From positions 103,190 through 167,189 of IMG/VR virus record IMGVR_UViG_3300009103_000004: a DNA stretch of 64,000 nt; one strand, 5' to 3'. A program made the position numbers and the translations under genes. The notes below the pieces were generated by a model. It was not told where the DNA came from and searched no databases. It saw only the letters and a program-made list of their open reading frames with translations. The stretch is from a virus. Numbering within the stretch: position 1 is the first letter of the stretch; every line of letters starts with the position of its first letter. Of this stretch, positions 1,815 to 61,427 are shown piece by piece.

Positions 1815-1885
1815 TGGTGGAGGTGGGCAGATTCGAACTGCCGTACCATTATCGCACGGACAATGGTCGAAACCGATTCACCCCC
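1815..1885 (-). ncRNA. tmRNA tRNA-like-domain-only RNA (mini-tmRNA, no tag ORF)
   Basis: GGGGGTG AATCGGTTTCGA CCATTGTC CGTGC GATAATGG TAC GGCAG TTCGAAT CTGCC CACCTCC ACCA: 7-bp acceptor stem with G3.U70, A discriminator plus CCA, stemless D-loop ending TTCGA, P2a-like helix closed by 5-nt loop, canonical T-arm. Confidence 0.8.
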
Positions 1886-9074: not shown

Positions 9075-10253
9075 TTAGTCCTTTTCAAGGCCAAGACACG
9101 ACTTTCTGCTATTTAGATCCGCCTCAGAGATTAGCTGACTTTGGCGGTTCTCTATCTCAGTCTCCCGAAGTCGGGCCACTTGCTCGGGGCTGAGGCCAGG
9201 CTTCTCTGCCCCTTCGGGCATCTTTTCAAGGCAAGTCCTGAAATTCAACTCGTTGTTGATCTGACCTAACATATGTCTTAGGTCGCGACTCGAGTTGAAA
9301 GCCACAGAATGTGGCCGGATGTAAGCAGCCTCTTGGTCCACGTTTTTAATCATGGACTCGTGTCGGTTATTAGCGAACTTCATATCGTTATAACCGATAA
9401 CGGCAGAGATCTTGGGCATATCCAGCTCCTCAGCGAGAGGTTTCCACTTCTTCTCAGGGTCCGAGGGTCTTACCTGCCGAAGCTTGGTTGCCCAATGCTT
9501 GGTGTTCCTGACCAAGAAATGTGGAAACCACATCTCCAACGAGTCTTTCCCATTGTAGCAGCATGCCCCGCTACCCATGATATTGGTTGTGTACTTCTTT
9601 ATAAGATCCGTAATAAAGAACCGAAGTTCGGAATATTCCGGATACTTTTCGAGGTTGCCCTCAAGAAGCTTCCACACAGGACCCTTGGACTGCTTAAGAT
9701 ATGCAAGCCTCTTCCTGATGCTCATTTCAGGAAACTTCTTAAAGAAGTTCACGAGCCTGCTCGGATAATCCTGGAGACTTTCCTTCCTGAGCGACTTCCG
9801 TCTCCGGATGTGAGAGCGTCCCGCATAGTCCTTGTAATCCGGCTCGCTGGCTTGCAGTAGCTCAGACAGCCTATGAGCATCTCTTCCCTTTGCACGGAAG
9901 AACACCTCCAAAGGCGAATCAAGAACTGACTCGACAGTTGGCCACTCAAATGAGTCAGAGTGGGTGGCTTTCCCGTACTTGCAGAGCTTGCCATCCACGT
10001 CGACCGGCAAGGTCTTGAGATCATTGAGGTAGTTGTGGTAACCATCCTCAAAGCCGAAACGACCGAGATCGATGAATCCTTTGTCGTCTTGCTTCCCAAT
10101 GAGGGTGGGACGAGGTCCCACCTTCGCACGAAGTGATCCATCGAGAACAATCCAGTGCTGCGACGTGAACACGAACTCACACGCCGCTAGCTTGTAGTAA
10201 GCAAAGCGCATGTCAAAGCACGTTGCTGATGTTGATATTAATAATTTTTTCAT
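9075..10253 (-). CDS. hypothetical protein
   Basis: 392-aa ORF with its own promoter motif (10302-10312) and terminator. Confidence 0.7.
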   Translation of the reverse strand: MKKLLISTSATCFDMRFAYYKLAACEFVFTSQHWIVLDGSLRAKVGPRPTLIGKQDDKGFIDLGRFGFEDGYHNYLNDLKTLPVDVDGKLCKYGKATHSDSFEWPTVESVLDSPLEVFFRAKGRDAHRLSELLQASEPDYKDYAGRSHIRRRKSLRKESLQDYPSRLVNFFKKFPEMSIRKRLAYLKQSKGPVWKLLEGNLEKYPEYSELRFFITDLIKKYTTNIMGSGACCYNGKDSLEMWFPHFLVRNTKHWATKLRQVRPSDPEKKWKPLAEELDMPKISAVIGYNDMKFANNRHESMIKNVDQEAAYIRPHSVAFNSSRDLRHMLGQINNELNFRTCLEKMPEGAEKPGLSPEQVARLRETEIENRQSQLISEADLNSRKSCLGLEKD

Positions 10254-13624: not shown

Positions 13625-14008
13625 TTACGTGACATGATATCCTGACCCCCCACAGGTGGAGCACGTAACTGGATATAAACTCCAGTTTCCAGCATTGTTG
13701 TATTTGTATGTTCTACTGGCTATAAAGCCACCATACGTGAATGCTCTGTTGTCTACCTCGAACTCCTCATCATGTCCATCTGGATCTAACAATCCAACAC
13801 CGTTACATATATAACATACGTCGAAGCCACGATTAGAGTTACAAAACTCTTTTTCGTGTGTAGTATCAAACGATCCATCTATGCTGGCTAACCAGCAATC
13901 ATGTAGATCGACATCATACATGTTATAAGCAGTGTCCAGGACTTCACGGTACTTTAACATGTCTACCCATCTCCGTACTTCACCGACAGTCGCTATATCT
14001 TTAGTCAT
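13625..14008 (-). CDS. DnaJ-type zinc-finger-containing protein
   Basis: CYICNGVG and CSTCGGSG motifs; AGGAG upstream. Confidence 0.65.
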   Translation of the reverse strand: MTKDIATVGEVRRWVDMLKYREVLDTAYNMYDVDLHDCWLASIDGSFDTTHEKEFCNSNRGFDVCYICNGVGLLDPDGHDEEFEVDNRAFTYGGFIASRTYKYNNAGNWSLYPVTCSTCGGSGYHVT

Positions 14009-14189
14009 GACTCTCCTAGCTCACTCAGTATAGAGAGGAGGTTGCGATAAGATCTCGGCAAGCTTCTTTTCTATGAATCATCTTCATGACGACACCTTCA
14101 CTTTCCTATGAGCTTTCCACTCATGCTTTGGGCAGTATGTCCATCCTCCTTGCTTCACCGACTCCGCTGCCTCGGAATCGGAAACACGT

Positions 14190-14402
14190 TTAATCTCTTT
14201 TTTCTTTTTTATACACTTCATTGGATTGTTCCTCCATGTTTTGGTTATTAGGTATTTCATATACCTTATTATATAATTCCTCTGGTACATCGCCAATAAG
14301 CAATGGTTCAATCTCATAGGTTAATACCAAGTGAGACTTACCACTTATTGCACGTATAGGCTCATTCAAACCCGTACCAGGATGATTTCTATTTTTGTTC
14401 AT
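14190..14402 (-). CDS. hypothetical protein
   Basis: ORF coupled by ATGA overlap. Confidence 0.5.
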   Translation of the reverse strand: MNKNRNHPGTGLNEPIRAISGKSHLVLTYEIEPLLIGDVPEELYNKVYEIPNNQNMEEQSNEVYKKEKRD

Positions 14403-14818
14403 ATTGCGTCACACTCGCCTAGCATCAGATTGAAGTGACGTTTTGCGGGCTGGTCTATAATGTCACCGTCTGGATGTTCGATCCGTACAGGCCAATCACC
14501 AGGCTGGCATTCAATTTCGGAATTTTTAATTGTTCCAAATTCTTTTACATAGCTGGGACCGGGATCAAAATCGGTGCGTACAAATAACTTCCAACCATCA
14601 AAACGGTTAGAAATCGATGTAGTAAATTTCAATATGTTTGAATATGGAGTATCTTTTGAATACGTTACCGAGCCCCCGCAGGGTGCATCGGGGTGGATAT
14701 GGAAACGTACGGTAAAGTTACTGTGCGGTGCCAGAAACGATGCCGTTATTGCCTTGCGCATCGCACTTTGCCTCTGCAGAGATGAGTGGAATTTATTAAT
14801 CTCTTTCTCATGATTCAT
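14399..14818 (-). CDS. hypothetical protein
   Basis: ORF with AACCAAGGA leader. Confidence 0.65.
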   Translation of the reverse strand: MNHEKEINKFHSSLQRQSAMRKAITASFLAPHSNFTVRFHIHPDAPCGGSVTYSKDTPYSNILKFTTSISNRFDGWKLFVRTDFDPGPSYVKEFGTIKNSEIECQPGDWPVRIEHPDGDIIDQPAKRHFNLMLGECDAI

Positions 14819-14999
14819 TTACTATTATCCTTGGTTTATTATTTATATAAAAGGCGGGGGACCCTGACCCCCTGACTGTAACTGACGTTAGTTCATTACG
14901 TGCCTCTGGTTTATGGTTTTGGCTTTCTGAATTAACTGTATGCTCTGGCACCATCGGTGTTTCAGAGACAGCCTACAGCCTAGCCGGGATTTAAATTGA

Positions 15000-15295
15000 C
15001 CCCCTATATTGACTAATTGCGTCCGGTTCATTTGTGTCACCTATACGTAGTTATGGGCTGTGTACTCACGTGGGTACACCACATAACTTTCCTTCGGACG
15101 GTCATTACTCGCTTGTCCTTGTAAAAACCTTCAAGACAATACCGTGGGTACTGCTTCTGCTTGTTGGTAGCTACGTTGTCCGTAGAGTAAAACTTATAAT
15201 GAGTCATGAACACATTAATAAGCGACGATCCATGGTGTATGACGCATAAGATCTCTAAGCGACCGACAGTCGCATAGTAGTGTCAATCTAGGGGG
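15000..15295 (-). ncRNA. putative multi-stem structured ncRNA (~300 nt)
   Basis: Closing stem CCCCCTATATTGAC (15000-15013) / GTCAATCTAGGGGG (15282-15295) encloses at least five internal helices; no credible ORF; strand inferred from context. Confidence 0.55.
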
Positions 15296-15631
15296 GCTGT
15301 ATACTGTGGGTATAGATGTTACGTAATGTCTCGCGAACTATAAGTTAACATCCGACCAAATAGAATCGAGTGGTAGCTGCTATCCACTCATGGATTCTTT
15401 ATCACATTAGCTTTACGTTTCTGTGATATCAGGAATTAGTTTTGTGTTAGGAGTGAAGCCCTAAAAAAGGCGTACTCTCCCCCAACCCCAGTTATGCGGA
15501 TTCTCTTGCCGCATTAATATCACTGTTCGGGTACATTGTTTTGTATGGCTAACCAGCCCTAATGTCCGCAATAGCTTCTTAGGCTTAGATGAAGTATACA
15601 GAGAAATATTCCTTTCGTTTGTTATTATTAA

Positions 15632-15725
15632 AACCCAGTAGAGGAGACTCGAACTCCTCATGGTACCTTGTGACCTTCCTCACGGTTTCTGTGTAAGAGG
15701 GTACCGACCATCCAGTTACTGAGTT
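15632..15725 (-). ncRNA. tRNA-like RNA with T-arm, no canonical anticodon arm or encoded CCA
   Basis: AACTCAGTA/TACTGGGTT terminal stem, GGTACC/GGTACC arm, GAGGAG-TTCGAGT-CTCCTC T-arm. Confidence 0.55.
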
Positions 15726-15746
15726 CTAAATTGATAAAAATAAAGA

Positions 15747-15864
15747 GAGCGGGTGTTGACTTTAACGAGCAAAGGATGACAACAAAGAAACAAACCAAGG
15801 CTCTGGGTACAACACCCGCTCAACTTCAAACCCATATAAGTGAAAGGGGGGGAACTTATATGGG
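15747..15864 (-). ncRNA. two stem-loops with pyrimidine-rich loops (sRNA-like)
   Basis: 12-bp perfect stem 15747-15758/15810-15821 with 51-nt loop; 11-bp stem 15831-15841/15854-15864 with C-rich loop on minus strand. Confidence 0.5.
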
Positions 15865-15877
15865 AGGTAAATGATTA

Positions 15878-16747
15878 CTATTTAAGAGGATTAGTCTTAT
15901 GAGACGTAATCGTCAACGGATTGGCTTTCACCAATTCTGCTTCAGTTGGTACGGAACCTACTGGATACTTTTTATCCATGTAAACTCTGTATTCCATACC
16001 ATCCGGTAGGTGGGCGTCCATGTAGTCAGCGTCCCTTCCGAGGCGCATGAGAGTATTGAAGCCGGAATTAAGGTATTCTTCCGAATCTTCTTCACCGGCG
16101 TTACCGTCACATATGCTTGTAAGCGTGTAGATTATGAGGGGCTCAGATCCACTTCCACTCTCCAATCCCGCCAAGGGAGTATCTATATTGTGTTCATCAG
16201 GATCGTCGAAATCTACTTTCCAAGTGCGAAGTAAATGATCAAGATGCTCCTTAGCATGGTGCAGAGATGGATACCCAAACCAAGTGTCATGGTCCTCGTC
16301 ATACTTATCCATGTCGAGGAGTTTATAATCAGAGAAGATCGCGGATAGCAGCTCATCGGTTTTCGAACTTTCATCCTTAACATTTAGCAAGACATACTCT
16401 TCTGGCCATTGATCCGCCCAGGGTAAACAACCTAAAGTTAGGCTAACGTTACTAAAAATCTCCTCAAACTTACCTTCGCCGTTATCACGATCATACAGAT
16501 CGAATCTAACTTCGTCGGTACCCAAGTCGACCTTCATTACTCTACCGTTGTGGTAGTCCAAGCGTACTTCGTTGTTGGGATGCTTGTGCTCCATCATATG
16601 GTATTCAAGATAAGCTTCAGCGAGCGTCATAGGACGCTGGCCACTTACGTCTGCAAGACCAAAGCCCTGCTGCTTGGAGTTATTATACAACTCCCAGAAT
16701 AGAATCCAGTGGGGAAACCCACTAGGTAGTTTTATTATATTATCCAT
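15878..16747 (-). CDS. hypothetical acidic protein between the ncRNA islands
   Basis: 289-aa ORF; no family recognised. Confidence 0.7.
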   Translation of the reverse strand: MDNIIKLPSGFPHWILFWELYNNSKQQGFGLADVSGQRPMTLAEAYLEYHMMEHKHPNNEVRLDYHNGRVMKVDLGTDEVRFDLYDRDNGEGKFEEIFSNVSLTLGCLPWADQWPEEYVLLNVKDESSKTDELLSAIFSDYKLLDMDKYDEDHDTWFGYPSLHHAKEHLDHLLRTWKVDFDDPDEHNIDTPLAGLESGSGSEPLIIYTLTSICDGNAGEEDSEEYLNSGFNTLMRLGRDADYMDAHLPDGMEYRVYMDKKYPVGSVPTEAELVKANPLTITSHKTNPLK

Positions 16748-16792
16748 GATATGTTACCTATTTGTATTTAGTTTATTTGTTGTGAGAAAACC

Positions 16793-17850
16793 TAATGAGG
16801 AAGGACTGCCTGTAGGCTGATCAGTTCCTTATACCCTAGTCCTATTACGCTAATCGGATACCGAAGTATATGCTGATATAACGTAGCGCCCTTGGTTGTG
16901 TCTCCAGTTAGGGTTGTCTCATTAATACTCTTTTCAGAATAAATTGATGTGGTCCGTCTTGCTCTCTGCCTTTTCGTAGGTTTACTTGGCCAATCAGAGA
17001 ATCGATGTTCATAGCCCCAGACGCCTACTGTATCGGCGGGGGTTGTTGGAAACCTCTTTCGAAGCGTACCACCTTACGCGCGATACCATCTTACAGACCG
17101 ACTAGTATAAGTACATATACGGAAGGACCGTGATCCCTCGCATCGGAGTACAGTCCCCAATGCCATGTAAAAATACATAGTAACTACTAAGTTCAACCAC
17201 AAAGCACTTTTACTTGAATAGTAAAAGATAAGGGAGACCACGCTAGCCCACTTGAACGTGCGCACGTTGTGAGCGACAACGAATGGTGGTTTGTGCTGTA
17301 ACTCCCAAAGATAAAAAGTAGTGAGCCGGTGAGGGGGGTGTCTATGTTTTAACCCGATCCCCACCGGCTCTAATATCCCACTTCCGCTGGAGACGGAGTG
17401 TGGGACAAAGGATGAGGTGGTGGTTACTGTCCGTAGATCAAATAACCACCAAGCGTATGTAGCGGTCGCGCCCGACCCGTGCTGATAAGAAAGACAGCTA
17501 GAACCTCAGCGCTATCCCCTAGAGGAGTCACGGCGGTTCGATTACGTTTGATCTAGCCTATGACCTATCAGTATGCCTTCATGGCGACTTGCATACTACC
17601 TTTTTACCTCAAAAAGTGGAGAAGCATCGACGTGTTAGAACTCCTTACCGACTGGCTTAACTAACCAGCAAGCCGCTACTACAAGCAGCTGGAATGGGAT
17701 CACGAGCATACAACCTTTCAATTTGCCAATGCTTCTTCGCTCGTGTCTTTTTAGGACCATTTCCCTGGTAGGAGTTTTGTTGAGCAGATCCCCTACGGTT
17801 TGTTCTTGTACCTAGGAACAAGAAAAGCAAACGCGAAGAGAATACGTACT
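16793..17850 (-). ncRNA. putative cluster of structured ncRNAs (~1.05 kb)
   Basis: No credible CDS; stems at 16793/16924, 16951/17129, 17232/17306, 17323/17370, 17376/17405, 17419/17450, 17639/17776; promoter motif at 17857-17867 points into it. Confidence 0.55.
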
Positions 17851-17856
17851 CAAGTA

Positions 17857-17867
17857 TATATACCACA
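17857..17867 (-). promoter_or_regulatory. promoter-like motif TGTGGTATATA upstream of the ncRNA island
   Basis: Matches recurrent motif; no start codon of a credible gene follows for about 1.1 kb. Confidence 0.6.
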
Positions 17868-17870
17868 AAA

Positions 17871-18248
17871 TCATATAATATTTCGCGGCATCTCGCCTTC
17901 CTTGGAAAGCTTGTCACTAACAGATGCTTTACGCACTGCTTCATTATAGCCATCAGTACCCACAAGCCCCAGTGTGTTATCAGCTAACTCATACTGATCA
18001 ACTTTATAGATACTCAAAAAGCTTTTGAAATGTATCTTTTCACTTTCATACGCTATCCACTTTCTTAGCCTGTCTACGTGACCAGAAGCTTGAATTATCA
18101 ATCTGACATCATGGAACAGATATGGATAGTATTCTACTTTATTTCGAACAAAGATACCCGGGTTTAATGCTTCAGCTATATTGTTTACAAATATTTGCGG
18201 AAGCGGTTCATCCAAGTCTTTGAGCATTTCATCTTTATGTTGGTTCAT
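17871..18248 (-). CDS. hypothetical protein
   Basis: ORF in tightly packed operon. Confidence 0.6.
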   Translation of the reverse strand: MNQHKDEMLKDLDEPLPQIFVNNIAEALNPGIFVRNKVEYYPYLFHDVRLIIQASGHVDRLRKWIAYESEKIHFKSFLSIYKVDQYELADNTLGLVGTDGYNEAVRKASVSDKLSKEGEMPRNII

Positions 18249-18591
18249 TGCGTTTGAATATATATTTATAATTTTCTTTTGACTCTTTAACTAATTCTTT
18301 TCCCTTACTAGGGGTGTTACTATCAGACATACTGGTTTCTTTAAAAACTGCAAAAAGTCTTCCTATCCACGCCTGTAATGGCATTTCCATCTCAACCTCT
18401 TTACTAACTTCGCCGTTTTTTATTTCCTGTACAGCTATGTCAGCGAGAGTCTCCATACCGAACAATCCCTCGCCCTGCTTTATTGTCATCGTTTCACGAA
18501 CAGTTATACCATTTTTTTCAAAATAGTATTCCGCAACCAAGTGCTTTAGCACAGGGCACATTACTTCATCATCTTCATCATCATCAAACAT
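18235..18591 (-). CDS. hypothetical protein
   Basis: ORF in tightly packed operon. Confidence 0.6.
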   Translation of the reverse strand: MFDDDEDDEVMCPVLKHLVAEYYFEKNGITVRETMTIKQGEGLFGMETLADIAVQEIKNGEVSKEVEMEMPLQAWIGRLFAVFKETSMSDSNTPSKGKELVKESKENYKYIFKRNEPT

Positions 18592-18623
18592 GGGACATTT
18601 TACCTAGGTTTAGTTGTGTAATT

Positions 18624-18887
18624 TTAAAACTCATAGTGTTCAGGATCTGCTTGTACTGCCTCTATTGCTTTCTTGCGAATAGTATCATAACACCAGCCAC
18701 TCATAGTCATGAGGCAGATGTCTACGATTTTGGGGTTTTCATTATAAGCGCAAAGAAGATGCATGGCACGCTTGTGATACGGCTCATCATCTTCGATTAT
18801 CTCCTTTATGAAATACTCCATGAAAGCAGTGCGGTACGGTATACCTTCCTCATCTACAAATGTAAGTTCAGTTTGAGTATCGCTCAC
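18624..18887 (-). CDS. hypothetical protein
   Basis: ORF in tightly packed operon. Confidence 0.6.
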   Translation of the reverse strand: MSDTQTELTFVDEEGIPYRTAFMEYFIKEIIEDDEPYHKRAMHLLCAYNENPKIVDICLMTMSGWCYDTIRKKAIEAVQADPEHYEF

Positions 18888-18888
18888 A

Positions 18889-19074
18889 TTAGTATCTTAT
18901 TTCAGTACCGTATATTGCAGAATCACCAACACTAGATATAATTTGCTCAACCCACTGATCCTTATTCTTAGGCGTTCCGTCTGGATTATAATGTGCTGAC
19001 CTATCTTTAGTCATCCTATACTTGGGAGACTTACGTACTTTTTTAACCGCCTTTTTAGTTTTTTTTGCTGCCAT
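18889..19074 (-). CDS. small basic protein with Lys/Ala-rich N-terminus
   Basis: MAAKKTKKAVKKVRKSPK. Confidence 0.6.
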   Translation of the reverse strand: MAAKKTKKAVKKVRKSPKYRMTKDRSAHYNPDGTPKNKDQWVEQIISSVGDSAIYGTEIRY

Positions 19075-20345: not shown

Positions 20346-20422
20346 TGGTGGGCCCTGTCGGGTTCGAACCGACGACCTGCCGATTATGAGTCGGACGCTC
20401 TAACCAACTGAGCTAAGGGCCC
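20346..20422 (-). tRNA. tRNA with CAT anticodon, most like tRNA-Ile2 (lysidine type)
   Basis: GGGCCCTTAGCTCAGTTGGTTAGAGCGTCCGACTCATAATCGGCAGGTCGTCGGTTCGAACCCGACAGGGCCCACCA; full cloverleaf, encoded CCA, acceptor resembles ileX-type rather than initiator Met. Confidence 0.9.
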
Positions 20423-57226: not shown

Positions 57227-57797
57227 TGTTTGATAGTGAGTCCGTTTTTAAAGCAAACGCTGGAGTGTTTTTGGAAACACTCTCTTTTACTATGCCGAGT
57301 AATATTATGTTGATAGAGCTTTCAACCGAATCTTTTAATAATTTGGTGAACTTATTATTCAGTTCATATATTCGTTCTCCATCATGATCCTGAGAATACT
57401 CGAATGCCACTGCTAAAATATTCTCACAAGCGCTAGTCGCAACTGTTGCTTTGATTAACGTCGTAGACCTAGTTTTTTTTATTAACTTATATAATACACA
57501 AACAGCGTTTCTGCTTATTAGCTCGTCGTACGGGATGTGACACCCATAAAACTCATAATTATCATCTACCTTAAAAGCTAGAATATACTCTGGCTGCGAT
57601 ACTTGTTGGTATTTACCGGCCTCAGCGTCGTAAAAATAATCAAAACATATTCTAGGTCTGCTGTTAAGGTGATGACACATGTTGCCTACTATCCCAAGAG
57701 CGGGGCCAGGTAGGAGTTCTGTCACTCCGTCTTGCCCACCCCATATAGCATTTCCTACACTTAGTGCGTGCTTCAATTTTACTGCCTCTTTACTCAT
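57216..57797 (-). CDS. hypothetical protein between sbcD and sbcC
   Basis: ORF coupled to both neighbours. Confidence 0.65.
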   Translation of the reverse strand: MSKEAVKLKHALSVGNAIWGGQDGVTELLPGPALGIVGNMCHHLNSRPRICFDYFYDAEAGKYQQVSQPEYILAFKVDDNYEFYGCHIPYDELISRNAVCVLYKLIKKTRSTTLIKATVATSACENILAVAFEYSQDHDGERIYELNNKFTKLLKDSVESSINIILLGIVKESVSKNTPAFALKTDSLSNNES

Positions 57798-58863
57798 CTT
57801 CTAAAACCCCCAACCTGTCAGCTACAAATTTGTCTATTATAGAATTCACATCTGCATCTGGGTTTAATAGTTGAGATACCGTCTCAAATTGCGCAGGGCT
57901 GTCTGGTATAAGCGTTTTCAATATATCAGAAAATGTTAAATCTTCTTCATCGGCGTATTCCCCGGAACTTGCATCTGTTTTATTCATAACAGGCCGGGGT
58001 CTTATTATCACTTTATTAGAATCTATTTGCTTTCTGAATCTAGAAAGTGCATCACCGAGTTCCGTATTAAATCTGATGAACACCATAGGTTCCTCGTCTA
58101 TTATATTCTGCAGATACTTTATCCCTTCTGATATATCTCCCTCTGAGTCTACTAACATTTTTACAATTTTTCTCGTCTTAATGCTATGAGATTCAGTTTC
58201 CCATGTTTCGCCAGTTAACGTATGCACGTAAACGCGCTTTATATCCTCTTCGGGTTCACTTATTAACTCTGTAGATCCTGGGGAGCATATAGTCATCCCA
58301 TCTAGGTCGAAGCTCTGGTGTATATGAGTATCCCCTATAATTACAATCTTTGCATCTACGTTTGTGAAATCATCGTACGTAAAGCTTTTTTCACTTGGAA
58401 ACGTTGTAAGCTCATTAAACGACTGGTGCATTAACAGTATGTCAGTTGTCTTTGGTACGCATGCACCTTGGTCAAACTCAGACCTGCTGCAAAAAGTTTT
58501 CCCGTATATGGAAACACCGTTGATAACAAAACTCTCATCGTTAAGTACGCGAAAGCCAACGCTTGCATCATCCGATATGTTACTTATCCAGTGTGGGTTA
58601 CTATTGTCGTGGTTACCTATACTCACAAGGCACAACATATTGTGTTCCTTGAGGTACTTCTGACACTGTTTTAAAAACTGTATTGTGTGCGCTGTAGGCC
58701 TCACACTGTGTAGTATATCACCGCTTACAGTTATAGCGGATACACCTAATTCAACTCCTAGTTCGAGAACAGACCTAAAACCTTGCTCTATGTCCCTTTC
58801 TCTCCGGAGTAAACCATATTGCCGAAACCCTATGTGGTTGTCGGCGGTAGATAAAATTTTCAT
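57790..58863 (-). CDS. sbcD: SbcD/Mre11-like nuclease
   Basis: ADNHIG, SGDILH, GNHD, MHQ, GDTH, PGS metallophosphoesterase motifs. Confidence 0.9.
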   Translation of the reverse strand: MKILSTADNHIGFRQYGLLRRERDIEQGFRSVLELGVELGVSAITVSGDILHSVRPTAHTIQFLKQCQKYLKEHNMLCLVSIGNHDNSNPHWISNISDDASVGFRVLNDESFVINGVSIYGKTFCSRSEFDQGACVPKTTDILLMHQSFNELTTFPSEKSFTYDDFTNVDAKIVIIGDTHIHQSFDLDGMTICSPGSTELISEPEEDIKRVYVHTLTGETWETESHSIKTRKIVKMLVDSEGDISEGIKYLQNIIDEEPMVFIRFNTELGDALSRFRKQIDSNKVIIRPRPVMNKTDASSGEYADEEDLTFSDILKTLIPDSPAQFETVSQLLNPDADVNSIIDKFVADRLGVLEDE

Positions 58864-58865
58864 TA

Positions 58866-59195
58866 TTACTCATCTGATTCGTCATCTATTTCTACCACTG
58901 TTTCTTCTTCTGCATCTTGTGGTAATACATCTTCTTGACCGTGAGAGTTTTTCTTCTCTTCTATCAGTCTGTTTAATTTAACTGCTGTTTTTAAAGTAAA
59001 TGGTTCTATTGCAGAGTCTACGGCCTTCTTGACACGCGGCTCGGCTATTAATAAATGATCATCATCTAACAAGAAGGGAATGGTGGTTGCATATTCAATT
59101 TCAGAAAATGCCTCACCGCCACTCACTGGCTTGAGTGATAACTTGATTTCTAGCGTGTAAGATCCATCATCACACAGCTCTTCATTATCTGACAT
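58866..59195 (-). CDS. acidic hypothetical protein
   Basis: ORF track. Confidence 0.6.
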   Translation of the reverse strand: MSDNEELCDDGSYTLEIKLSLKPVSGGEAFSEIEYATTIPFLLDDDHLLIAEPRVKKAVDSAIEPFTLKTAVKLNRLIEEKKNSHGQEDVLPQDAEEETVVEIDDESDE

Positions 59196-59216
59196 GTCAG
59201 TTAACTATATTCAGGG

Positions 59217-59585
59217 TTACTCACCGTCAATCCTTAACTCTAAACGCTTTATCCATTTTGGGAGTAAACGTTTGTAGTCTCTGAATTTTACCCACTCTAT
59301 ACTACCTATACGTCCAACTGTTCCATGATTAGGATATATATCACCAGCGTCAACAGGCGCTGGCTCACTATCAGGACCTTTATGACTCGTAAACCATTGA
59401 GAGCTCAACACTTCCGGCCCGCCCCATTCGCCACGCCTAAAGTCTGTATTTCTTCTTCGACGTAGGTACAATACTGGTGACTTATTGATTACAGGTTTTA
59501 CTTTACTTAATGTGAAATCTGGTATTAAAGTGTCTTCAACATCTAGGTTTGCTGACCCAGATAACTCTATGTTTGCATCACTCAT
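59217..59585 (-). CDS. hypothetical protein
   Basis: ORF track. Confidence 0.6.
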   Translation of the reverse strand: MSDANIELSGSANLDVEDTLIPDFTLSKVKPVINKSPVLYLRRRRNTDFRRGEWGGPEVLSSQWFTSHKGPDSEPAPVDAGDIYPNHGTVGRIGSIEWVKFRDYKRLLPKWIKRLELRIDGE

Positions 59586-59588
59586 AAT

Positions 59589-61427
59589 ATGTATTTTGAT
59601 TTAGAATATACCGTTCGTACGGATGGCTTGTTTAGGGACAAGCTTACTAGGTTAACAAATAAGTTTCAAGATTTAACAAAAAAAGCGGACACCAGTAGCA
59701 AATATGTTTCAGAAGCACAGGATGTGTTAATGGAAATAATGCGCCTTTGTAAGTATAACCCAGCATACCTGCTACCTTATTACTTTCCGCAGTACCCTAA
59801 GACTAAACCCATGAGTCTTAGGAACTTTCCATTTGCATATCACTTGCTGCCAATAAATGTAGGTGGGTTTATGGTAATACGTGGGAGTAGACAAATAGCC
59901 AAGTCTACAACGTTTGCTGCTAGGCAGCGGCTTAACTCACATATGATACCTAAGTTTAAAAGTTTGTATATAGCACCTAAAGCAGATCAGGTTAAAACAT
60001 ACGCAAACAGGTTGCGTGAACTAGAGCAAGCTTTTAGGTTTCCAAACACTAGTCATAAGTATAGACAAAACTTACAGTATAAAGAGTACCCGAACGGGTC
60101 TACTATACAACTAATCAACGTTGATACTCAGGTATCTAGCGCGCGGGGTATGTCCACCGATGAACTACTCTACGATGAGTATCAGAATTTTGACCCCAGC
60201 TTTGAACCTGAAATCGACGAAATTCAACGCGCTTCAGAAATGCCTGTCACTATATACGCAGGCACGTCCCTAACAACTGATACAGCACTTGAAGGTAAAT
60301 ATTCTGATTCTTCCCAAGGAGTATGGATAATAAAGTGTCAGGGGTGTTCACACGAGAATATACCCACGCCAGAGGAAGGTGTTATGGATATGATACAGCC
60401 CAAGGGCGTATGTTGCTCCAAGTGCGGTAAGTTACTAGATGTTACTAAGGGAAGGTTCGAACACCTAGTTCAGGAAAAATTTGAACTTGGATTTTATGGG
60501 TTCCATATCCCGCAAATTATAGTACCCGCTGTAGTTAACAATAAAATACGGTGGGATGAAATATACAGGAAAAAGTTACACCAGGATCCTAGAAAATTTC
60601 TGCAAGAAAACTTAGGTATACCAACGCAAGAAGGAGAGCGTGAAATAACCGAAGCTGATCTCCGAAGAATTTGTGTTCTAGGTGAAGAGTTCGAACCGTA
60701 TAGACAAAAAGCACTTAACGGCCAGTATTACGCGGTATTTTCGGGATGTGACTGGGGTGGCTCTGATTATGATACCTCTAACAAGACAAAACTATCTTAT
60801 ACCTGTCATGCAATGCTTGGCCTTAATAGAAATGGCACTTTTGAAATTATACATGCCAAGCGGTACGAGGGAATGTCTTATCCAGCAATAGCTGACGATA
60901 TAATGGAGCGCCATAACAGTTTGGGGGGTCTAGCCCTGGGAGCTGATCATGGTGTCGGTTATGCATACAACATGTTGATGCGGGAACGCATGGATGCTGA
61001 ACATAATTTTATATTTAAATATGCAGGGCCTAATAGTGAAGTACTGCAAGAAAGTAAAACTATGTTTAACATGTATAGCGTTAACAGGACAGAATCTATA
61101 ACGTCACTGTATTACGCTGTCAGGAATATGCGTATAACGTCTCTGAGTTGGAACCGTATGGGGGAGTACTTGTCTGAGTTGTTAAACCTTATAAGGATAC
61201 CTAACGAGGCTCCTGGAGGTGCTACAGGTTTCTTATACAGAAAGCATGGATCGAAGTCTGACGATTTCCTGCACGCACTAAATTTTGCTTACATAGTAGG
61301 AAGAGTATTCCTGCTAGAAAATATAGTGGAAGATCGCTCTTTACTTGAGAGGATGAAACAATCTATGACTAGGAGCGGGGCCGTTCAAATTTCTCACATC
61401 CAGGGTGGGGAGGCTTTCAGTATGTAG
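59589..61427 (+). CDS. terL: terminase large subunit
   Basis: SRQIAKST Walker A, LLYDE Walker B, CQGC/CSKC zinc motif, GFHIPQ, GCDWGG and DDFLHA nuclease motifs. Confidence 0.85.
   Translation: MYFDLEYTVRTDGLFRDKLTRLTNKFQDLTKKADTSSKYVSEAQDVLMEIMRLCKYNPAYLLPYYFPQYPKTKPMSLRNFPFAYHLLPINVGGFMVIRGSRQIAKSTTFAARQRLNSHMIPKFKSLYIAPKADQVKTYANRLRELEQAFRFPNTSHKYRQNLQYKEYPNGSTIQLINVDTQVSSARGMSTDELLYDEYQNFDPSFEPEIDEIQRASEMPVTIYAGTSLTTDTALEGKYSDSSQGVWIIKCQGCSHENIPTPEEGVMDMIQPKGVCCSKCGKLLDVTKGRFEHLVQEKFELGFYGFHIPQIIVPAVVNNKIRWDEIYRKKLHQDPRKFLQENLGIPTQEGEREITEADLRRICVLGEEFEPYRQKALNGQYYAVFSGCDWGGSDYDTSNKTKLSYTCHAMLGLNRNGTFEIIHAKRYEGMSYPAIADDIMERHNSLGGLALGADHGVGYAYNMLMRERMDAEHNFIFKYAGPNSEVLQESKTMFNMYSVNRTESITSLYYAVRNMRITSLSWNRMGEYLSELLNLIRIPNEAPGGATGFLYRKHGSKSDDFLHALNFAYIVGRVFLLENIVEDRSLLERMKQSMTRSGAVQISHIQGGEAFSM

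Follow-up and report, generated by a model that had tools for sequence, protein, structure and literature searches.

Introduction

What does an ORF-free stretch of 1.1 kb do in a phage genome with a coding fraction of about 91-93% and an intergenic fraction of about 9%? The window analysed here is a stretch of 64,000 nucleotides, bases 103190-167189 of the 167,189-base IMG/VR virus record IMGVR_UViG_3300009103_000004 (estimated completeness 94%). Nearly all genes are carried on the minus strand. Cultured relatives are very distant, the portal protein being about 22-25% identical to those of Vibrio phages D69, D148 and D181 and of Salmonella phage Arash. The ORF-free stretch (island A) separates a 125-aa gene from a 289-aa gene, and a second one (island B) follows the latter; the coordinates of all features are listed in Table 1.

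A first-pass annotation, made from the letters of the window, had read island A as a promoter-headed, polycistronic operon of tandem folded small RNAs that might continue through the 289-aa gene into island B, forming an RNA-plus-protein locus of about 3 kb. The segment from 14.8 to 17.9 kb is richer in GC than its flanks: island A has a GC content of 0.46-0.53 with balanced bases, compared with 0.32-0.40 for neighbouring genes and about 0.32 for true spacers. This composition lends some support to structure in island A.

Table 1. Features of the locus and of the units compared with it. Positions are those of the window unless a genome or contig is named.
Feature	Position	Strand	Description
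tRNA-Met	20346-20422		2.5 kb upstream of island A
125-aa gene	17871..18248		Upstream of island A
Island A	16748-17870	minus	ORF-free, between the 125-aa gene and the 289-aa gene
Promoter motif	17848..17866	minus	Phage-specific, GTGGTATATATACTTGAGT, immediately past the 125-aa gene's stop codon
A1	17320..17847	minus	Promoter-proximal non-coding segment of about 530-540 nt, candidate discrete structured RNA; GC 0.47-0.53 (flanks 0.32-0.40)
Three-way junction	17636..17780	minus	Closing stem and three hairpin arms (fold)
Four-hairpin cluster	17318..17480	minus	Includes hairpins 17419-17450 and 17376-17405 (fold)
Terminator-like hairpin	17323..17370	minus	12-bp GC-rich stem, then ACUACUUUUUAUCUUU (inverted repeat and fold)
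A2	16748..17319	minus	Distal non-coding segment of about 570 nt, fold z -1.28
289-aa gene	15878..16747	minus	Normal codon use, 0.168 per codon
Stem-loop	15747..15821	minus	Perfect 12-bp stem, 51-nt loop, then the U-rich tail UCUUUAUUUUUAUC (inverted repeat)
tRNA-like element	15633-15723	minus	Good T arm, 7-bp acceptor stem, aberrant anticodon region (ARAGORN); weak; start of island B
Island B	14819-15877, listed as 14856..15735	minus	Second ORF-free island, after the 289-aa gene
Terminator-like hairpin	14856-14872	minus	Finish of island B
ORF-less unit	genome 96288-96050	minus	About 6.9 kb before the window start, same promoter type
G001 non-coding unit	L174:7283-7850 = G001 72282-72849	plus	Promoter to terminator

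Coding tests

Codon log-odds were calculated with a model trained on the phage's own long ORFs, for which the gene mean was 0.147 per codon (s.d. 0.07). The island ORFs scored in the manner of non-coding DNA, with -0.09 per codon for 17074..17364 and 0.054 for 17657..17965. Three-base periodicity was absent from both halves of the island (χ2 of 1.3 in A1 and 2.4 in A2), the reference being the 200-300-aa genes of the phage, with a median χ2 of 32 and a minimum of 12; island B gave 8.3. Reading TAG, TGA or TAA as a sense codon yielded neither a long periodic frame nor a convincing gene. No ORF of either island had an above-threshold match in Pfam or PHROGs, and tblastx of the islands against the relatives and 1.3 Mb of other phage DNA gave no match. 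By codon log-odds, periodicity, recoding, Pfam and PHROGs, island A is non-coding, in agreement with the earlier view that it holds no credible coding sequence.

Promoter motif

The window holds four copies of the full 19-nt motif at up to three mismatches, where 0.09 would be expected. Genome-wide, 15 intergenic sites carry the core of the motif, G[GT]TATATA; every one is on the gene strand, and a terminator precedes many of them. One of these 15 (window 25133) was scored 'in_gene' by the gene caller and was taken as intergenic by judgement. About one core site was expected from the composition and the intergenic fraction of about 9%, which corresponds to an approximately 15-fold enrichment. 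The motif reported at the head of island A is thus real. Eleven of the 14 other core sites lie 35-110 nt before a start codon; the copy in island A lies 1117 nt from the next gene.

Three motif copies head ORF-free stretches, including those of island A and of genome position 96288. In the unit at 96288-96050, hairpins fill about 200 nt, GTTTAGGGG recurs in their loops, and two canonical terminators come next. Since its promoter heads a unit without an ORF, the phage appears to use the motif to drive non-coding units. The unit shares its promoter type and the presence of hairpins with island A; it differs in being shorter, in its loop repeats and its two canonical terminators, and in having no sequence in common with the island. 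A separate ORF-free gap of 1.08 kb, with many short internal direct repeats, was noted at genome 97051-98132, some 5-6 kb ahead of the window.

Predicted secondary structure

Fold z-scores were computed against dinucleotide shuffles. Sixteen 540-nt coding segments from the same window served as controls (mean z -1.56, s.d. 1.44) and two of the 16 fell below -3.5. The strongest fold among them (z -5.59) belonged to segment 9300-9839 of ORF 9075..10253 on the minus strand. The 289-aa ORF itself gave -4.52. Because coding controls and this ORF reach values similar to those of the island, folding energy alone is weak evidence.

A1, folded as 17310-17850, gave a z-score of -4.71 in the sense orientation and -2.28 in the antisense orientation. 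This is about two standard deviations beyond the coding background, which is suggestive, not decisive. Counted from the promoter, the fold opens with a 68-nt hairpin and the three-way junction, becomes less defined in the middle and closes with four consecutive hairpins. The junction had an energy of -48.7 kcal/mol (z -3.60), and one of 200 shuffles was as good; the hairpin cluster had -72.2 kcal/mol (z -5.60), and none of 200 shuffles was as good. The junction previously placed at 17639-17776 and the hairpins at 17419-17450, 17376-17405 and 17323-17370 are therefore present in the minimum-energy fold and beat the shuffles. The last of these hairpins is non-canonical as a terminator, with a U run offset by 5 nt, and was not called by the terminator scan; a TAnnTTTG match follows it at 17313.

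The branched domains that had been described further along, in A2, did no better than dinucleotide shuffles (17232-17306, z -1.63; 16951-17129, z -0.72; 16793-16924, z -0.59). The sole A2 element that stands out is 17130-17231 (z -3.70), which the earlier description did not include. The last 35 nt or so of A2 before the ATG are A/T-rich and unpaired. Excess folding is confined to the promoter-proximal half of the island. Island B gave a z-score of -2.36, inside the range of the coding controls.

Comparison with related contigs

Protein-anchored scans of IMG/VR were performed using as queries the 289-aa protein, its family alignment, the polymerase and three flanking genes. Three related contigs were found, of which only one reaches the syntenic site. 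This contig (G001, IMGVR_UViG_3300028197_001229) has a polymerase identity of 72% and is collinear with the window from 63005 to 17871. Its orthologue of the 125-aa gene aligns with that gene over the full length and is directly followed by the same promoter motif and about 550 nt free of ORFs. The unit closes with a canonical terminator (GGGGTAGTAGG...CCTGCTACCCC plus eight T), after which unrelated genes begin. Its fold gave z-scores of -5.84 (sense) and -4.37 (antisense), and it is itself a candidate RNA gene.

The G001 unit resembles A1 in its slot after the 125-aa gene, its promoter motif, its length, its lack of ORFs and its strong folding. It differs in its canonical terminator and in the genes that come next, and the two cannot be aligned: no alignable sequence was found beyond the promoter, and a collinear k-mer chain did not rise above shuffles. 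Nor did RNAalifold return a common fold for the pair: across 656 columns the folding term reached only -8.8 kcal/mol. The synteny comparison thus has two sides: a promoter-to-terminator non-coding unit is kept in the slot, whereas its sequence and consensus fold are not, and structural conservation was absent from the single syntenic relative. As A1 and the G001 unit have neither a fold nor, beyond the promoter, any sequence in common, there is no sign that structure is under selection. A slot, signals and length that are kept while the sequence is not would fit either a fast-evolving RNA or a non-orthologous replacement.

Further searches for homologues were negative. The 3.6-kb locus had no blastn match in 50,697 phage records. 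The islands gave nothing by blastn, nhmmer or tblastx against 1.3 Mb of phage loci, the three relatives and all other large gaps, and no homologue of island A was found in the IMG/VR scans. One metagenome scan yielded nothing but distant carriers of the N-terminal domain. Two of the related contigs have further stretches, 1-2.5 kb long and enriched in GC, that score as non-coding by a simple codon model (G003 57414-59912 and G001 78958-79983); they have no similarity to islands A or B.

Two other readings of the island were weighed. In one, all 1.1 kb would be nothing more than a long 5' leader on the mRNA of the 289-aa gene, with hairpins that affect stability or translation and with no independent function. 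The single promoter of the phage type between 17866 and 14849, the unstructured distal half, the A/T-rich and unpaired nucleotides before the ATG and the non-canonical A1 hairpin are all in line with a leader. A leader of 1117 nt would lie far outside the norm set by the other promoter sites, however; the structure of A1 is concentrated far from the start codon, and the G001 unit closes with a canonical terminator ahead of the next gene. We consider a leader of this length rather unlikely.

The other reading, which we judge unlikely, treats the island as non-functional filler, a decayed cassette of horizontal origin in a hypervariable slot whose structure is a by-product of higher GC. The GC-richness of the entire 14.8-17.9 kb segment would suit such a cassette, as would the wholly different content of the slot in the two relatives, the failure to find a homologue among the phage records and IMG/VR scans, and z-scores for A2 and island B inside the coding-control range. 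Yet 2.2 kb of junk should go quickly from a phage that is about 91-93% coding, and neither residual protein similarity nor codon periodicity was detected. Moreover, A1 stands out even against dinucleotide shuffles, in which GC is controlled for, and the slot in G001 holds a neat promoter-to-terminator unit.

Known RNA families

A cmscan of Rfam, which had been proposed in the first-pass annotation, identified no family in island A: there was no match in or near it at the gathering threshold (whole window) or at E <= 10 with lax filters (14000-19000 and 16700-17900). Group I and group II introns, tmRNA and RNase P were among the families without an Rfam match there. Reverse transcriptase (RVT_1), Ro60/TROVE and RtcB were not found in the genome. 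An intron was rejected on the basis that no ribozyme core matched, RVT_1 was lacking and the upstream 125-aa gene is uninterrupted. Elsewhere, window 1815-1885 (minus strand) matched the Rfam tmRNA model with 60.3 bits, above the gathering score, over only about 70 nt, so that the match probably represents just a tRNA-like domain; ARAGORN reported no tmRNA.

VIPR vrRNA arrays consist of tandem GGY/NN units with a 5-nt period (bioRxiv 10.64898/2026.04.26.720920). Such an array was rejected, as at most three of eight phased GGY were found per 40-nt window in islands A and B on both strands.

GOLLD and ROOL are large 'ornate' non-coding RNAs of 0.5-0.8 kb, encoded by phages and prophages, that are often found near tRNA genes (10.1101/2024.12.08.627333; PMC5737381). 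The covariance models of GOLLD (conserved 3' domain) and of ROOL (six multistem junctions, three pseudoknots) gave no match. A1 is like these RNAs in lying in a phage genome near tRNA features (tRNA-Met, 2.5 kb upstream; the tRNA-like element, 1.6 kb downstream), a loose contextual resemblance, and also in that GOLLD and ROOL have no known protein partner and no known function. Unlike them, A1 has no Rfam match even at E <= 10 and no architecture supported by covariation, and whereas GOLLD and ROOL are conserved across phyla, A1 has no detectable relative.

The 289-aa protein

The predicted structure of the 289-aa protein contains an N-terminal α/β domain of about 105 residues (pLDDT > 90 for residues 1-105). 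This domain is a member of a widespread, unnamed phage family, most of whose proteins stand alone and are 90-150 aa long; the family occurs at over 140 IMG/VR and over 430 metagenome loci and has the conserved motifs ...LYNNSKQQGxG...DYxxGRVMKVDL...LYDRDNGxG. Neither the protein nor its family had a match in Pfam, and no endonuclease or reverse transcriptase family or fold was found in the protein. The structure search suggested in the first-pass annotation, run against the PDB, gave nothing above Z 4.0 (best 4.0, uninformative). At 160 other loci the domain family was not enriched next to large ORF-free gaps, by an ORF-length metric that is not comparable with island A. Of the 31 tRNA genes in the fetched loci, 18 are no more than 1.5 kb from a family gene, a zone that holds 34% of the bases; this is a mild, unverified association of tRNA genes with the N-terminal family.

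The wider segment

Between 17866 and 14849, gene-strand motifs of the TATATA type occur only at 17862 and 14849. With no further such motif between these positions, the 3 kb could be one unit with internal attenuation points. The stem-loop at 15747-15821 is probably the terminator of the 289-aa gene and gave a weak Rfam match to the L20-leader terminator. The tRNA-like element at 15633-15723 was called by ARAGORN (Phe, gaa, 91 nt) at relaxed settings only and did not match the Rfam tRNA model. Within 16748-17870 no tRNA unit was found with ARAGORN or Rfam at default settings; relaxed settings gave one doubtful call at 17115-17203. The islands contain no repeats or paralogous modules.

The suggested 3-kb locus is compatible with one promoter-to-terminator unit; the tandem small-RNA operon that was thought to fill it is unsupported. 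Such an operon would be a polycistronic precursor, processed to many small folded RNAs and running through the gene into island B. The several closed hairpins in tandem at 17318-17480, the weak tRNA-like element, the tRNA-Met 2.5 kb upstream and a locus compatible with single-unit transcription, with terminator-like hairpins at 15747-15821 and 14856-14872, can be cited in its favour. Half of the modules named for it fold at chance, however, none is repeated or paralogous, tRNA-like units are absent at normal thresholds, no Rfam family matched and processing signals were not identified. We regard such a precursor as very unlikely. Coding sequence that went unrecognized, whether through a recoded stop codon, as small proteins or as a broken gene, is barely credible: one minus-strand frame has only nine stops in 374 codons, with a single TAA in the 237-codon stretch 17505-16795, but as a gene it was rejected for lack of periodicity (χ2 of 4.2, against a gene minimum of 12, with no codon-position bias), its codon score is negative, it has no family or tblastx match and elsewhere in the genome the standard code gives clean reading frames.

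Interpretation

The reading that we tentatively prefer, while stopping short of calling it probable, is that A1 is a discrete structured phage RNA of about 540 nt and that A2 is the leader of the 289-aa gene. The absence of coding signal, the promoter enrichment, the excess folding of the sense strand, the GC content, the G001 unit and the unit at genome 96288 were counted for an A1 RNA. Counted against it were the lack of a shared fold in G001, the z-scores of the coding controls, the antisense z-score of -4.37 in G001, the non-canonical 3' hairpin, and the absence of an Rfam family and of a homologue in the 50,697 phage records and the IMG/VR scans. Judged by its sequence as an independent RNA gene, with a promoter present, a non-canonical 3' hairpin and a syntenic relative that cannot be aligned, A1 is a candidate. 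As a new phage RNA it is plausible but unproven, and its transcription, end positions and role are our inferences.

On the preferred reading, island A would be transcribed as a non-coding unit from a promoter of the phage's own type. A1 would be made as a discrete, stably folded RNA from about 17847 to 17320 on the minus strand, consisting of the 5' hairpin, the three-way junction and the run of four hairpins. The last hairpin and its U-rich tail may act as a partial terminator or as a structure that protects the 3' end. Readthrough, or a restart just past this hairpin, would lead to transcription of the poorly structured A2, which may work as the leader of the 289-aa gene.

As to function, our guess is that A1 could act in trans, binding a protein of the host or of the phage as a scaffold or decoy. 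That the sequence has turned over completely between relatives while the slot stayed fixed suits a fast-evolving role in conflict more than it does conserved catalysis. More speculatively, and decidedly unlikely in our estimation, A1 and the G001 unit may represent an undescribed class of fast-evolving, promoter-headed large RNAs that serve as decoys or scaffolds in conflicts of phage with host or of phage with phage, in phages with their own multisubunit RNA polymerase.

A1 is a candidate only; its practical value is that of a defined target, 17320-17847 on the minus strand, for metatranscriptome RNA-seq. Few large structured phage RNAs such as GOLLD and ROOL are known, and another of about 0.5 kb with its own promoter would widen the set. 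If A1 is an RNA of this kind, it would come from a lineage with almost no cultured relatives, in which the slot is kept and the sequence is not. If the class exists, its members would keep position, length and expression signals while their sequence turns over completely.
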